Positions 56,470 through 64,000 of a stretch of DNA of 64,000 bases are shown in pieces (positions within the stretch are counted from its first letter, which is position 1; the number at the start of each line of letters is the position of its first letter). The translations under genes were made by a program, and so were the position numbers. This DNA comes from Escherichia coli. GTDB taxonomy: Bacteria; Pseudomonadota; Gammaproteobacteria; Enterobacterales; Enterobacteriaceae. The stretch is taken from NCBI RefSeq assembly GCF_024700885.2, contig NZ_CP117016.1. One strand, given 5' to 3'. Below the pieces are notes generated by a model. That model saw only the letters and a program-made list of their open reading frames with translations. It ran no database searches and was not told the DNA's origin.

Positions 56470-57723
56470 ATGCTGGAACAAATGGGCATTGCCGCGAAGC
56501 AAGCCTCGTATAAATTAGCGCAACTCTCCAGCCGCGAAAAAAATCGCGTGCTGGAAAAAATCGCCGATGAACTGGAAGCACAGAGCGAAATCATCCTCAA
56601 CGCTAACGCCCAGGATGTTGCTGACGCGCGTGCCAATGGCCTTAGCGAAGCGATGATTGACCGTCTGGCACTGACGCCCGCACGGCTGAAAGGCATTGCC
56701 GATGATGTGCGCCAGGTGTGCAACCTCGCCGATCCGGTGGGGCAGGTAATCGATGGTGGCGTGCTGGACAGTGGCCTGCGTCTGGAGCGCCGTCGCGTGC
56801 CGCTGGGTGTGATTGGCGTGATTTATGAAGCGCGGCCGAACGTGACGGTTGATGTCGCTTCGCTGTGCCTGAAAACCGGTAACGCAGTGATCCTGCGTGG
56901 TGGCAAAGAAACCTGTCGCACTAACGCTGCAACGGTGGCGGTGATTCAGGACGCCCTGAAATCCTGCGATTTACCGGCAGGCGCAGTACAAGCGATTGAT
57001 AATCCTGACCGCGCGCTGGTCAGTGAAATGCTGCGTATGGATAAATACATCGACATGCTGATCCCGCGTGGTGGCGCTGGCCTGCATAAACTGTGCCGCG
57101 AACAGTCGACGATCCCGGTGATCACAGGTGGTATAGGCGTATGCCATATTTATGTTGATGAAAGTGCAGAGATCGCTGAAGCCCTGAAAGTAATCGTCAA
57201 CGCGAAAACCCAGCGTCCGAGCACATGTAATACGGTTGAAACGTTGCTGGTGAATAAAAACATCGCCGATAGCTTCCTGCCTGTGTTAAGCAAACAGATG
57301 GCTGAAAGCGGTGTGACGTTACACGCCGATGCTACCGCACTGACGCAATTGCAGGCAGGTCCCGCGAAGGTGGTTGCTGTTAAAGCTGAAGAGTATGACG
57401 ATGAGTTTCTGTCATTAGATTTGAACGTCAAAATCGTCAGCGATCTTGACGATGCCATCGCCCATATTCGTGAACACGGCACACAACACTCCGATGCGAT
57501 CCTGACCCGCGATATGCGCAACGCCCAGCGTTTTGTTAATGAAGTAGATTCATCCGCTGTTTACGTTAACGCCTCTACGCGTTTTACCGACGGCGGCCAG
57601 TTTGGACTGGGCGCGGAAGTGGCGGTAAGCACACAAAAACTCCACGCGCGTGGCCCAATGGGGCTGGAAGCGCTGACCACTTACAAGTGGATCGGCATTG
57701 GTGATTACACCATTCGTGCGTAA
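56470..57723 (+). CDS. proA: Gamma-glutamyl phosphate reductase
   Basis: 417 aa; follows proB by 11 nt. Confidence 0.95.
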
Positions 57724-57837
57724 ATAAAACCGGGTGATGCAAAAGTAGCCATTTGATTCACAAGGCCATTGACGCATCGCCCGGTTAGTTTTAACCTTGT
57801 CCACCGTGATTCACGTTCGTGAACATGTCCTTTCAGG

Positions 57838-57913
57838 GCCGATATAGCTCAGTTGGTAGAGCAGCGCATTCGTAATGCGAAGGTCGTAGGTTCGACTCCT
57901 ATTATCGGCACCA
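57838..57913 (+). tRNA. thrW: tRNA-Thr (anticodon CGU)
   Basis: 76-nt sequence gccgatatagctcagttggtagagcagcgcattcgtaatgcg...ggttcgactcctattatcggcacca with cloverleaf features and CGT in the anticodon loop. Confidence 0.9.
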
Positions 57914-58008
57914 TCACCTAGTTTTCCCAAGTCAACCCACATCAACAAAATCATTTAAAAACATATATATTACGTTGTTTTCATACGTTTGAGGTCAACC
58001 CTTGTCTC

Positions 58009-59268
58009 TTGAAATCAACACGCGGTTGGGGGCACAATCAGGGGCATGTTCTGTTCGGTCTAGGAAATGTGCCCCCAATGATGCTGAATGCCCGCAAGGT
58101 TGAAGCTGCGAAAGGAAAAGAGAAGAGCTACAAGCTGTTTGATGGAGGTGGCCTATATCTTCAGGTCGAACCTAATGGCTCGCGTTACTGGCGTATGAAA
58201 TACCGTTTTGCTGGTAAAGAGAAACGATTGTCCTTTGGTGTTTATCCAACAGTCACACTTGCTGATGCCAGACAAAAACGAGAAGACGCGAAGAAACTAC
58301 TCGCAGCAGGTGAAGATCCCGGCGAAGTCAAAAAAGCCAAAAAGCAGGCTTTAAATGCAGCGATTGAGACACTTAACCCATTCAGAGAAGTGGCGTTAGA
58401 GTGGCACAAAATGAAATCACCCAAATGGTCTGAGGGCTATGCTTCCGACATCATTGAGGCATTCGAGAAAGACATTTTCCCGCATATTGGGCACAGACCT
58501 ATAGCTGATATTCAGCCCCTTGAACTGCTTGAAGTTCTGAGATTGATAGAAGCTCGAGGCGCTATGGAGAAAGCGAAGAAAGTCCGTCAGCGATGCGGTG
58601 AAGTTTTTCGCTATGCCATCGTAACGGGTAGGGCAATCTACAATCCGGCACCGGATCTTGCCAGTGCGATGCAAGGACATGAAGCAGTCCACTATCCATT
58701 CCTCAAAGCCAACGAACTACCGGAGTTCTTTAATGCCCTTAATTCTTATTCAGGAAGTCCAATTGTATTGTTGGGGGCGCATTTACTTATCCTGACAGGT
58801 CTACGAACTGGAGAACTACGAGCAGGTGAGTGGCGAGAGGTGGATTTTGATAATGCGGTGTGGGAGATCCCAAAAGAACGTATGAAAATGCGTAGGAGCC
58901 ATATTGTCCCGTTGTCAAAACAAGCATTATCCCATCTCAAAAGTTTGAAAGAACTAACTGGGAACTACCCGCTGATGTTCCCTGGACGCAACGATCCTAG
59001 CAAATTTATGAGTGAAGCAAGCATTAATCAGGTGTTTAAACGTATTGGATATGCAGGGCGTGTTACGGGGCATGGTTTCAGGCATACGATGAGTACAATC
59101 CTACATGAGAAAGGATTTAACAGCGCTTGGATTGAAACCCAGCTTGCTCATTCGGACAAAAACTCTATTCGTGGAATTTATAACCATGCCCAATATCTCG
59201 AAGGGAGAAGAGAAATGATGCAATGGTATGCTAATTATTTATCTGAGCTAATTGGTACTCATAAATGA
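58009..59268 (+). CDS. int: P4-type tyrosine integrase
   Basis: 419 aa; N-terminal arm-binding region (LFDGGGLYLQVEPNGSRYWRMKYRFAGKEKRLSFGVYP), C-terminal catalytic region (HGFRHT...YNHAQY); starts 95 nt after the tRNA. Confidence 0.9.
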   Translation: MKSTRGWGHNQGHVLFGLGNVPPMMLNARKVEAAKGKEKSYKLFDGGGLYLQVEPNGSRYWRMKYRFAGKEKRLSFGVYPTVTLADARQKREDAKKLLAAGEDPGEVKKAKKQALNAAIETLNPFREVALEWHKMKSPKWSEGYASDIIEAFEKDIFPHIGHRPIADIQPLELLEVLRLIEARGAMEKAKKVRQRCGEVFRYAIVTGRAIYNPAPDLASAMQGHEAVHYPFLKANELPEFFNALNSYSGSPIVLLGAHLLILTGLRTGELRAGEWREVDFDNAVWEIPKERMKMRRSHIVPLSKQALSHLKSLKELTGNYPLMFPGRNDPSKFMSEASINQVFKRIGYAGRVTGHGFRHTMSTILHEKGFNSAWIETQLAHSDKNSIRGIYNHAQYLEGRREMMQWYANYLSELIGTHK

Positions 59269-60089
59269 ATATTTTAAAAATTAATAATACTGATTCTCTG
59301 CTCAGAGATTACTACCAGTTGGATGAAGCTTCAGAAAAAATTGGTTGTAGTGAAAAGGATATACTCTGGTTTGCCAGAGAACGAGATGTAGAGCTATGCA
59401 TGGAATTCCATGATGATGAGTATGATGTTTCATGTGGTTTGAAGATTGATGGTCAAATGGATGAGTTCTTATCTAATCTGAAATATTTACCACGAGATAG
59501 AAATGGCAATATTATGTTGTCAGACTTAAGTTCTATAAGAATCCCTGATGAAGATAATTTAATTGATAAAAATGGTTTTATTCGATGTTTCATATCCGGT
59601 TTATGGGCTGTTGATTATGAATATAAAGATCTGTTAGTTAAGCATGAGGGGCAACCGGATTCCTGGCCTATTCATTTTCTACTGGCGGGTACGCCTAATA
59701 TAAATTGTAAGGTAATTCTTTATGTAAATTATGATGAAAAAGAAAATTATTATCTTTTTGAGGTTTTGTGGATTACAAAGGTACAGATTCAAAAATTCAT
59801 TGATATAGTCTTATGCGAACAAAAGCGGATAAAAAACGCCAATAAATATAAATCACAATCTGAGGCGCAAAAACAAAAACATGCTGTTCCTCGAGCTGAA
59901 ATACTCATGGCTATTATTTCGCTCTATCATCGTGATATGAGGCTAAGAAGAGAGAGTCCAGCAGCGATAGCTGATTATCTTTTTCAACATGCCAGTGAGT
60001 TCTGGCCTAAGACCGGAGAACCGCCTTTGAGCTATGATACTGTTGTTAGTTTGCTACGTAGTTGCATGAAAAACACTAAGTTTAACTAA
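59265..60089 (+). CDS. Hypothetical island cargo protein, AT-rich
   Basis: 274-aa ORF whose ATG overlaps the integrase stop (ATGA); N-terminal segment DYYQLDEASEKIGCSEKDILWFARE may be an excisionase-like HTH; the rest shows no motif I recognise. Confidence 0.55.
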   Translation: MNILKINNTDSLLRDYYQLDEASEKIGCSEKDILWFARERDVELCMEFHDDEYDVSCGLKIDGQMDEFLSNLKYLPRDRNGNIMLSDLSSIRIPDEDNLIDKNGFIRCFISGLWAVDYEYKDLLVKHEGQPDSWPIHFLLAGTPNINCKVILYVNYDEKENYYLFEVLWITKVQIQKFIDIVLCEQKRIKNANKYKSQSEAQKQKHAVPRAEILMAIISLYHRDMRLRRESPAAIADYLFQHASEFWPKTGEPPLSYDTVVSLLRSCMKNTKFN

Positions 60090-60214
60090 ATATTAACAAT
60101 TATTGTGGCTAATGATTTTGGATTTTTTTCATTAGTCACATTTTTCTCATTTATAACCTATGTTTTAATTTTCCGTGTTGAAGCCAATAGACTTAGATAA
60201 ACGGAGAATGATGA

Positions 60215-60421
60215 ATGTTATCTAAACATGATAATACTACTTTGCAACGACCTTCAATGGATTCTCTGATCGATATGAAGTTTATTACTTCCGATTGTTT
60301 ATTAAGTGATAAATGGATTTATCGATTGATTTCTCTGAATCGCTTTCCAAAACCTATAAAAATAGGTCGGATGTCACGATGGCGCGCTGCTGATTATTAT
60401 AAGTGGCGAGATGGGTTTTAA
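60215..60421 (+). CDS. alpA: AlpA-family phage transcriptional regulator
   Basis: 68 aa; HTH pattern (YRLISLNRFPKPIKIGRMSRWRAADYYKW). Confidence 0.6.
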   Translation: MLSKHDNTTLQRPSMDSLIDMKFITSDCLLSDKWIYRLISLNRFPKPIKIGRMSRWRAADYYKWRDGF

Positions 60422-60537
60422 GAAAACTCAGGTCAACATTTTGAGGGAATGAGAAATAAGGCAAGAGCAATTAATAAAGGGAATAGATTATCACCTACTC
60501 CCTAAGCCTTAATTGATAGTTAGTAATATTTAACTGA

Positions 60538-60711
60538 TTAGCCTTTAGGGTCAATCCCGCGTGATTGGAGTTCTTTGCGTAAAATTCTTTTAATCCAAGT
60601 TGCCAACGCGCTATCTCCATCTTTGCGCATTTCGTTTTCGAGTTGCAACCTAAAATCGTCGGTAAGACGCATTTGGAATGGTGGAGAACGTTTCTCTTGT
60701 GGTGTTGACAT
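60538..60711 (-). CDS. Small basic protein, possible ribbon-helix-helix regulator
   Basis: 57-aa minus-strand ORF (MSTPQEKRSPPFQMRLTDDFRLQLENEMRKDGDSALATWIKRILRKELQSRGIDPKG); below the track's length cutoff. Confidence 0.3.
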   Translation of the reverse strand: MSTPQEKRSPPFQMRLTDDFRLQLENEMRKDGDSALATWIKRILRKELQSRGIDPKG

Positions 60712-61011
60712 GGTAATTACCCTAGAATATGATGACTACATGGTAATTACCATTGTAAGTATAGTTCGCTTGTAAAAGCAATGCCCGATTGTGCGGGAAC
60801 ACAAATCGGGCATTTAACCAACCGTTATAAGAGGTAACGAAGATGGCTAAACAGAAGTGTACTTGGTTATTTGCGGCGATCAACCGCAGTCAACGCAATG
60901 CCCGTCCTGTGATGTTAAGGATCACCGCAGATAACGAGCGGTCAGCGCGGCGCAGACTTGCCCCGGACTATGTACTGAGCTTTGCCGGGCGCATTCCCTG
61001 CGGAGGTGAAC

Positions 61012-61371
61012 ATGCGTAATTATCCGCACCCCGGCGAACGCTGGCAGCATGAACGTGGCTGGACGGTCACGATTATCCGATTAATAGAAGCATCGCCCTC
61101 TGTGGCACTGGTTAATCCTGAATTCAGCTGTGAAGTGCTGATACGTCATGACAGCGACAACCAGCTTTCTTCCTGCCCTCTGGCATGGTTTGAACAGCGG
61201 TATACGCGCCTGTTTGATGTACCGCTCTTTAAGCCTGCACCAGCTCCTGCAGGCGGTAGTGGTTCCGGCCCGCTGACACTGCATCCGTCTGTGCTATTTA
61301 TCCGCTGGCGGGAGCGTAGCATATGGCGTTCTGCTGAGCCTGACGACGGTCACTATTCAAAGTTTCTCTGA
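61012..61371 (+). CDS. Hypothetical protein, island
   Basis: Track ORF 60982..61371; likely start MRNYPHPGERWQ preceded by RBS ggaggtg. Confidence 0.4.
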   Translation: MRNYPHPGERWQHERGWTVTIIRLIEASPSVALVNPEFSCEVLIRHDSDNQLSSCPLAWFEQRYTRLFDVPLFKPAPAPAGGSGSGPLTLHPSVLFIRWRERSIWRSAEPDDGHYSKFL

Positions 61372-61402
61372 CAAAATACCGCTGAAAACGGAGTAATCCA
61401 CG

Positions 61403-61687
61403 ATGAATATTTCAAACGGGCACAACGGTGCTCAGGGCCACACTTTGCCTGAAAAACACAATACCGGTGCTTTTGCCTATGGGTTGTCAGAGGACAGTTT
61501 CGGAAAGCTGACCCGCGCAAGAAATGCCTGCGACATGCTCCAGCTTCTCTTTTCTGAATACCCGTCTCAGGCCGGAGCACTGGACGCTGGCTGTGCGCAT
61601 GGTGTCGCCGCGCTGATGGAGTACCTGCTGGCAGATTTGACGGATATTGCACACAGCTGCGCACTGATTGAAGGAGGTGCCAGATGA
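61403..61687 (+). CDS. Hypothetical protein, island
   Basis: 94-aa ORF; its stop overlaps the next ORF's start. Confidence 0.4.
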   Translation: MNISNGHNGAQGHTLPEKHNTGAFAYGLSEDSFGKLTRARNACDMLQLLFSEYPSQAGALDAGCAHGVAALMEYLLADLTDIAHSCALIEGGAR

Positions 61688-62067
61688 ACCAGCCGCAGGT
61701 TTCCATTTTCCCGGCAGAAATGACCACCGCGCTTTACCGGCGGGCTATTGCTTCAGCATGGCGGCAGAAAATGCTGAACGAAACTGGCAGTGATCAGTAT
61801 GGTCCGCACAGCCTGACGGTGGAGCGTATTGAAATGGCCATTGCGCTGCATATCGAGTGCGTACTGATTAACGAGTACGGCGAAGTGCAGGGCGCCGCTG
61901 CCGCGCTGGCACTGCTGACTGACATGCTGGAGCCGTCACTGCTGACCGCGCCGCCGGTACTGACCGCGCGCGGCTGTGAAGTGATGGCGGAGATGTACCG
62001 CACGCTTCCGGCGGCCTTTGATGACTTCTGCAGTACCGGTGTGACGTTGTATGAGGGGGAAGTATGA
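61684..62067 (+). CDS. Hypothetical protein, island
   Basis: 127-aa ORF; its stop overlaps the primase start (ATGA). Confidence 0.4.
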   Translation: MNQPQVSIFPAEMTTALYRRAIASAWRQKMLNETGSDQYGPHSLTVERIEMAIALHIECVLINEYGEVQGAAAALALLTDMLEPSLLTAPPVLTARGCEVMAEMYRTLPAAFDDFCSTGVTLYEGEV

Positions 62068-64000
62068 CAATACAGACGGTTACGCAGATTTCAGCCGCCG
62101 CACGGGGGAAATGGCCCGTTATTCTGCAGATGCTGCGTATTGATGTACCTGAAAACGGCAGGCACGGTCCCTGCCCGAAATGTGGGGGCAAGGATCGTTT
62201 TCGCCTTGATGACCTTGACGGGCGCGGGACGTGGATCTGCAGCCAGTGTGGCAATGGTGACGGTCTGGATCTGGTTAAGCTCGTAACCGGTTACAGCGTC
62301 AGAAAGGCTGCGCAGGAGGTGGCGCAGGTGCTTAATGTGCCGAATATGCAGGAACTGCCTGTTAAGCCTGCCAGACAAAAAGCCCCTAAACGCGACATGG
62401 GTCTTACCGTGGCGGCGCTGATGAAAGAGAGCCACACGGGAGAAAGCGCCTATCTGACAGGAAAAGGGTTCGCCGGATACCCGGCCTCTCTGACCGGAAG
62501 CGTGCAGCATATCAGCGGTAAGGATTTCCCTGCCGGTTCCCTGCTGTTACCACTCACGACCAACACCGGAGCCGTGACCGGTGCACAGCTTATCGCCCCG
62601 ACGGGTGAAAAAAGCATACTGCCCGGCAGCACGATGAAAGGCGCGTTTGTGTCGCTCAGCCCGTTACCGTCTGAACCACCGGTACAGGTGGTGATTACCG
62701 AAGGTTACGCTACGGCGCTGACGGTAAGTCAGCTCACTGCCGGATGCGTAGTGGCTGCCATATCTGCGGGCAACCTGCCCAATGTGGCGCAGTCGCTGCG
62801 GGCACGCTGGCCTGAGGTAAAAATTATCATCGCCGGTGATAACGATTTTCAGGACGGAGATGAGAATCCCGGCAGAGCCTTTGCTGAACGGGCGGCAAAA
62901 GCTGTTGGCGGCTGGATGACGCTGCCACCAGGAGAGATTAAGGCTGACTGGAATGACTTTCATCGGGAGCACGGTATTACCCGTGCCCGTGAAGCCTTTC
63001 GCAACGGTCTGGTACTGTGCGGGGAAGGCCGCACGCAACTGCCGCACGGGTTCCGTCTTACCCAGGAATATCTCTGGTATGAAAAGCAGGTACAGCGCAA
63101 CGGTGAGACGGAGATCCAGAACGTCAAAATATGCAGCCCGCTGCGCGTGACGGCAATCACCTGCGATGCCGATGGCGGTAACTTCGGACGACTGCTGGAA
63201 TGGGAAGATACGTGGGGTGAGTGTCGCCGCTGGGCGATGCCGATGGAAATGCTGAGCGGCAGTGGTGAGGAACTGCGCCGGGTACTGCTGGTTAACGGGC
63301 TGTCTTATATCAGCACCACCGGTGAGGCACGCGCACGCCTGATGGAATATATCTCACTGTGTAAACCGGAACGCCGCGTGACCTGCGTCAGTCGTACTGG
63401 CTGGCATGGTCAGGTTTACGTCCTGCAGGATGAGGTCAGCGGTGAAGGTGCAGAGGGTGTCATTCTCCAGACCACTTCCGTGCAGGGGCGTGATTTCCGC
63501 GTGTCGGGCACAACAGAGGAATGGCGGGAGCATGTATCCCGCTACTGTACCGGCAACTCCCGCGTGGCATTTGCTGTCAGCCTGGCCTTTGCTGCACCAC
63601 TGTTACGGCTGGTTGGTATGGACGGCGGCGGCTACCACCTCAAAGGGGAATCGACAGACGGTAAGACCACCACCATGAAAGCGGCAACCTCCGTCTGCGG
63701 CGGGCCTGACTACTGGCAGACATGGCGGGCCACCGGCAACGCGCTGGAGGGATGCGCCAGCCGCCGCAACGATGCCGCCATGATGCTTGATGAGATCCGG
63801 GAAGTTGACGGACGCGAGGCAGGCAATATCGCCTACATGCTGGCAAACGGTCAGGGCAAGGGCCGTGCCGGTACGGACGGTGAGCTGCGTACCCGTAAGC
63901 AGTGGCGCCTGTTGTTCTTTTCAACTGGCGAGTTGTCTCTGACCGAACATGCGGCAAAGGCCGGTGAGCGTACTTTTGCCGGGATGGAAGTCAGGATGAT
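62064..64000 (+). CDS. P4 alpha-like primase/helicase; 3' end beyond window
   Basis: Open frame from ATG 62064 to the window end (not in the ORF track): zinc-binding motif CPKCGGKDRF...CSQCG, TOPRIM-like VITEGYATA / IIAGDND, Walker A GESTDGKTT. Confidence 0.85.
   Translation, partial: MTIQTVTQISAAARGKWPVILQMLRIDVPENGRHGPCPKCGGKDRFRLDDLDGRGTWICSQCGNGDGLDLVKLVTGYSVRKAAQEVAQVLNVPNMQELPVKPARQKAPKRDMGLTVAALMKESHTGESAYLTGKGFAGYPASLTGSVQHISGKDFPAGSLLLPLTTNTGAVTGAQLIAPTGEKSILPGSTMKGAFVSLSPLPSEPPVQVVITEGYATALTVSQLTAGCVVAAISAGNLPNVAQSLRARWPEVKIIIAGDNDFQDGDENPGRAFAERAAKAVGGWMTLPPGEIKADWNDFHREHGITRAREAFRNGLVLCGEGRTQLPHGFRLTQEYLWYEKQVQRNGETEIQNVKICSPLRVTAITCDADGGNFGRLLEWEDTWGECRRWAMPMEMLSGSGEELRRVLLVNGLSYISTTGEARARLMEYISLCKPERRVTCVSRTGWHGQVYVLQDEVSGEGAEGVILQTTSVQGRDFRVSGTTEEWREHVSRYCTGNSRVAFAVSLAFAAPLLRLVGMDGGGYHLKGESTDGKTTTMKAATSVCGGPDYWQTWRATGNALEGCASRRNDAAMMLDEIREVDGREAGNIAYMLANGQGKGRAGTDGELRTRKQWRLLFFSTGELSLTEHAAKAGERTFAGMEVRM

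Follow-up and report, generated by a model that had tools for sequence, protein, structure and literature searches.

P4-type satellites are small mobile elements that travel in the capsids of P2-family phages. The DUF5375 protein family is said to take in the P4 copy-number gene cnr, and the retronphage phiR73, which carries retron Ec73, uses tRNA-SeC as its integration site. P4-like elements have a DUF5375 gene between epsilon and alpha (PMC8628076), and Rousset et al. located retron loci in the hotspot between psu and int of such elements (PMC9122126). Because of its int-alpA-primase order, a typical P4-like satellite also scores as a Type C PICI (PMC10085698). We compared a thrW-linked locus of Escherichia coli with P4 (NC_001609) and the P4-like satellite family (de Sousa & Rocha, PMC8628076; SatelliteFinder, PMC10085698). 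The kind of element found is already known, but its gene order and control region are less studied.

Extent and distribution of the element

Positions 57838-64000 of the 64,000-nucleotide stretch that was analysed (the window) very probably comprise thrW and, next to it, 6.1 kb from the left part of a 12.24-kb P4-like phage satellite that integrated site-specifically at the thrW 3' end. An earlier note made from the sequence had proposed a P4/CP4-like island at thrW, and this agrees with the nine island proteins matched to P4 by BLASTP and with the Sid-like, Psu and Delta genes and the attR found in identical genomes. The nine proteins, two of them with weak matches, are Int, Vis/AlpA, the Icd-like part of the old "cI" ORF, orf151, orf106, the primase half of alpha, Sid, Psu, and Delta.

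Compared over these 6,163 nt, 20 E. coli genomes match essentially perfectly, and NZ_CP023386 and 15 other genomes are 100% identical; at least 80% of the stretch is present in 60 of 5,426 genomes. The 100% identical copies come from dog, chicken, lake-water, and human strains from several continents, and in four genomes a P22-like prophage precedes the island. The backbone ORFs are all intact, and some copies (H18, H64) carry an IS1 insertion. None of the right half (attR, cos, sid, psu, delta, and the retron) falls within the window; it was read from identical copies only. All 20 window-identical genomes continue with iterons, the Sid-like, Psu and Delta genes, a cos-proximal block, and a retron with a RipA-family gene.

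Attachment sites, integrase, and ORF274

The integration target is thrW, a tRNA-Thr gene (anticodon CGT; 57838..57913, + strand) identified by ARAGORN and, on an identical copy, by Rfam (71.8 bits), and the gene is left intact. Its 3' end, TCCTATTATCGGCACCA, forms the attL core (57897..57913). This core occurs once in the window, as expected from the note's placement of attR beyond it. A search downstream for a repeat of the thrW 3' end, which the note had suggested, located attR in the identical genomes at the far end of the island (L001 32301-32316; TCCTATTATCG-CACCA), 12,240 bp from attL and thus within a plausible island length. This attR is an imperfect repeat with a 1-nt gap relative to thrW. 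Since a different island type at thrW (L006) has the same gapped attR, the gap is likelier to be a property of attP than a sign of decay. The reconstructed empty site is intact and in one piece in 948 of 5,426 E. coli genomes, one of which is 100% identical to the reconstruction over 360 nt; comparison with these empty thrW sites shows that the element is a precise insertion.

The P4-type tyrosine integrase (396 aa; 58078..59268, +) contains the Pfam domains Arm-DNA-bind_3, Phage_int_M, and Phage_integrase and shares 43% identity with P4 Int (E 2.5e-111, BLASTP) and 64% with its Pantoea orthologue. The distance of 95 nt from thrW given earlier fits the longest ORF (start at TTG 58009) but not the start used in RefSeq copies, ATG 58078, which lies 164 nt past thrW. 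The Pfam arm-binding domain covers the 396-aa protein from residue 3 on, and the alignment to the Pantoea orthologue begins at residue 1.

The integrase and the AlpA-type regulator are both present, but they are not adjacent as previously described: a conserved, unannotated 274-aa ORF that had been missed (ORF274; 59265..60089, +) intervenes, its start overlapping the int stop codon. ORF274 is AT-rich (GC 0.345), and its N-terminus weakly resembles a MerR/excisionase-type winged helix. Always linked to an integrase of the P4-like type seen here, it most likely binds DNA as an accessory factor in integration, excision, or regulation; this assignment is the weakest step of our reading.

Control region

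The AlpA/Vis-like helix-turn-helix regulator and putative excisionase (68 aa; 60215..60421, +; Pfam Phage_AlpA) passes the Pfam AlpA cut-off by a margin of 0.6 bits (21.6 bits vs. 21, E 2e-4), belongs to PHROG 66 (excisionase/regulator), and shows a weak match to P4 Vis (32% identity, E 5.5e-4, BLASTP). The next gene is the divergent ORF57 (57 aa; 60538..60711, - strand), a putative Arc/ribbon-helix-helix (RHH) repressor. Its 85 homologue clusters are nearly all of 56-57 aa, and two bear the NCBI name "Arc family DNA-binding protein." Relative to Pantoea, its codons show 26 synonymous and 7 non-synonymous changes, which indicates purifying selection. An AlphaFold2 model has an extended N-terminus followed by a two-helix core, for which the top Foldseek match, the NikR RHH domain, is not significant (E 3.2); Pfam and NCBIfam gave no match, and a PDB profile search reached E 1.3. 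The ORF thus lies where the note had placed a divergent RHH-like gene, and the RHH identity is plausible, though not statistically established.

The best promoter match in 57700-64000 is a rightward sigma-70-like sequence, TTGACA-17-TATGAT (60705..60733, +; 11 of 12 positions), a candidate early promoter for the operon running from the Icd-like gene to the primase. It is kept in the Pantoea and Erwinia relatives; the Erwinia -10 hexamer has a single change, to TATTAT. Two identical 14-mers, ACATGGTAATTACC, with the palindromic core ATGGTAATTACCAT (60708..60751; copies at 60708-60721 and 60738-60751), are candidate operators, as they overlap the -35 hexamer and the region around the transcription start. 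The two matches compare with 0.19 expected; no further copies occur elsewhere in the element, and the 14-mers are conserved across genera, the second Erwinia copy having one substitution. The leader that follows contains a conserved hairpin, AATGCCCGATT...AATCGGGCATT (60780..60814, +; inverted repeat I6, 11 nt, 100% complementary), with a fold z of -3.8, stem ends that are kept in relatives, and a sub-threshold Rfam match to symR. The switch of the element is likely a small protein repressor.

The Icd-to-primase operon

Four small ORFs precede the primase gene, rather than the three counted earlier (60843-61019, 61012-61371, 61403-61687, and 61684-62067, all +). The first encodes an Icd-like putative cell-division inhibitor (58 aa; NCBIfam phage_ICD_like, 84 bits vs. 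a cut-off of 25; PHROG 1743) with 54% identity to residues 86-131 of P4 cI137, the C-terminal part of the old P4 "cI" ORF. ORF119 belongs to PHROG 30862 (E 2e-77), annotated as of unknown function, and weakly resembles P4 orf151 (E 0.014, BLASTP). ORF94, assigned to PHROG 14861 (also annotated as of unknown function), occupies the place that epsilon has in P4; it gave no BLASTP match to P4 epsilon and no Pfam match at E up to 10, Derepression and Phage_ASH included. The fourth product is a 127-aa DUF5375 protein (Pfam, 50.4 bits) with 40% identity to P4 orf106 (E 2e-15, BLASTP).

The primase-helicase gene (62064..64000, +) is cut by the window end, which leaves residues 1-645 of 890 within it. 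The zinc-binding, TOPRIM, and Walker A motifs noted previously correspond to Zn_Ribbon_Prim, Toprim_3, and the sequence GESTDGKT at residue 528 (nt 63645-63668), which lies in the third Pfam domain, DUF927 (303.7 bits). Residues 5-316 share 39% identity with P4 alpha. The tRNA gene, integrase, AlpA-type gene, divergent ORF, and primase-helicase all lie where the note had put them.

Late module, cos region, and cargo

Six TGTTCCACC iterons, against 0.24 expected, lie 3' of the primase gene and resemble the 8-bp repeats that the P4 record annotates as ori/crr. Beyond them, in the identical copies, the Sid-like protein shares 23% identity with its P4 counterpart (E 3e-11), Psu 29%, and Delta 45% (BLASTP), and Pfam Psu and Ogr_Delta were found. 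There is also a match (E 1e-91) to PHROG 6165; this is a family of Psu-like polarity suppression, and sid bears its name in the P4 record.

The block after Delta is about 70% identical to Peduoviridae cos regions, the matches sitting between the SOS-modulator/DinI genes and the portal gene. In the Pantoea and Erwinia relatives, a block that matches P2-family (Peduoviridae) phages contains GGCGTGGCGGGGATAGCAT, which has four differences from GGCGAGGCGGGGAAAGCAC, the 19 nt that open the linear P4 record. The P2/P4 19-mer had no match within 3 mismatches in the island's cos-like sequence, and the island's own 19-mer retrieved from IMG/VR a sole contig, another satellite, and no helper phage. Homology among the E. 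coli elements ends at L001 29094-29099, beyond which the cargo differs; this boundary agrees with the cos-adjacent hotspot described before (PMC9122126). In all 20 window-identical genomes the cargo is a type II-A retron with a RipA-family membrane protein. The msr reaches 53.4 bits (cut-off 52), the reverse transcriptase and NDT effector match PADLOC type II-A models, and the effector matches the NCBIfam retron St85 effector. The retron is anti-phage cargo of the satellite.

Proposed life cycle and alternative explanations

Helper dependence, excision, cos function, and packaging are features that we infer from homology, and together they suggest the following cycle. While the element is quiescent, the 57-aa Arc/RHH-like protein would sit on the two palindromic operators bracketing the rightward promoter and keep the Icd-to-primase operon off. 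Infection by, or induction of, a P2-family (Peduoviridae) helper would activate the element, which the AlpA/Vis-like protein and integrase would excise. Starting at the iterons, the primase-helicase would then replicate it; the Cnr-like protein would keep its copy number down, and Delta would switch on the helper late genes. Sid and Psu would force the helper capsid protein into small capsids, into which the helper terminase would package the 12-kb genome from cos. The cos-adjacent retron may protect host and satellite against other phages.

The locus could instead be a cryptic, immobilised remnant like CP4 of E. coli K-12, P4-like by descent and now a fixed defence island that has lost excision, replication, and packaging. 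The 1-nt gap in attR, the absence of epsilon, the IS1 insertion in H18 and H64, and a cos-like 19-mer that departs from the P2/P4 consensus, with no helper phage found to match it, lend this some weight. We nonetheless consider it improbable. The gapped attR is probably an attP property given its recurrence in the L006 island type, no backbone ORF is disrupted, the cos-proximal block is common to canonical O157:H7 P4-like elements, and identical copies are spread over hosts, lake water, and continents, four of them beside a P22-like prophage. Close relatives have also swapped cargo at the cos boundary, which points to an actively recombining, mobile population.

The part of the island in the window, with int, alpA, and a primase/replicase gene co-directional, has the core order of Gram-negative PICIs and would share their tRNA-independent logic of helper induction via AlpA. 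PICIs use lambdoid or other cos/pac helpers and redirect packaging instead of applying P4-style capsid size control. That the island is one of these is very unlikely: the complete copies contain no small terminase (terS), packaging-redirection, or capsid-morphogenesis gene and have in their place the P4 capsid-size and late-activation module (Sid-like, Psu, Delta) with a Peduoviridae-like cos block, and the DUF5375/Cnr-like and Icd-like genes have their homologues in the left operon of P4. We give even less credence to an integrative mobilisable element or generic tRNA-linked island, conjugative or immobile, that only superficially resembles a satellite. A tRNA-adjacent integrase and defence cargo are typical of such islands too (PMC10121019), but the annotation of the 12.24 kb includes no relaxase, oriT-associated, or conjugation gene, and both the nine P4-matched proteins and a size near that of P4 speak against it.

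Comparison with P4 and related satellites

Taken as a P4-like satellite, the island (12.2 kb vs. 11.6 kb for P4) shares with P4 a P4-type integrase at a tRNA 3' end, AlpA/Vis, the Icd-like and DUF5375/orf106 proteins, the zinc-ribbon and TOPRIM primase half, iterons, Sid, Psu, Delta, and a cos-adjacent cargo hotspot. Its backbone genes (int, ORF274, alpA ... primase, sid, psu, delta) are co-directional, whereas the P4 prophage has its psu-delta-sid operon divergent from alpA. For the helicase half, the island has DUF927 and P4 alpha has D5_N, DUF5906, and Pox_D5; Delta is a single 90-aa domain rather than 166 aa; and attP lies upstream of int, unlike in P4. No epsilon/Ash homologue was found by BLASTP to P4 or by Pfam, and the Rfam C4/CI, isrK, and c4-a1b1 RNAs, which score 74.9, 60.8, and 44.1 bits in P4, were not found in the island. 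Conversely, ORF274 and the divergent ORF57 with its operators are additions relative to P4.

Like phiR73 and the retron-bearing elements described previously (PMC9122126), the island is a P4-like satellite with retron defence in the cos-adjacent hotspot, and its Pantoea and Erwinia relatives sit at tRNA-SeC. The likeness to phiR73 is by description, as phiR73 was not among the phage-collection matches (megablast; primase tblastn). Relative to phiR73-type elements, the island retron belongs to the St85/Sen2 family (type II-A), has an NDT effector, and is accompanied by the RipA-family membrane protein gene. The canonical P4-like element of O157:H7 EC4115 (L010) has a sid-psu-delta block and cos-proximal sequence about 92% identical to those of the island. 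Unlike the island, it has the P4 gene order, a 777-aa P4-type alpha, alpA diverging from sid, a different integrase, and an ABC-three-component system as cargo. This comparison indicates that the late module has been exchanged between two backbone architectures.

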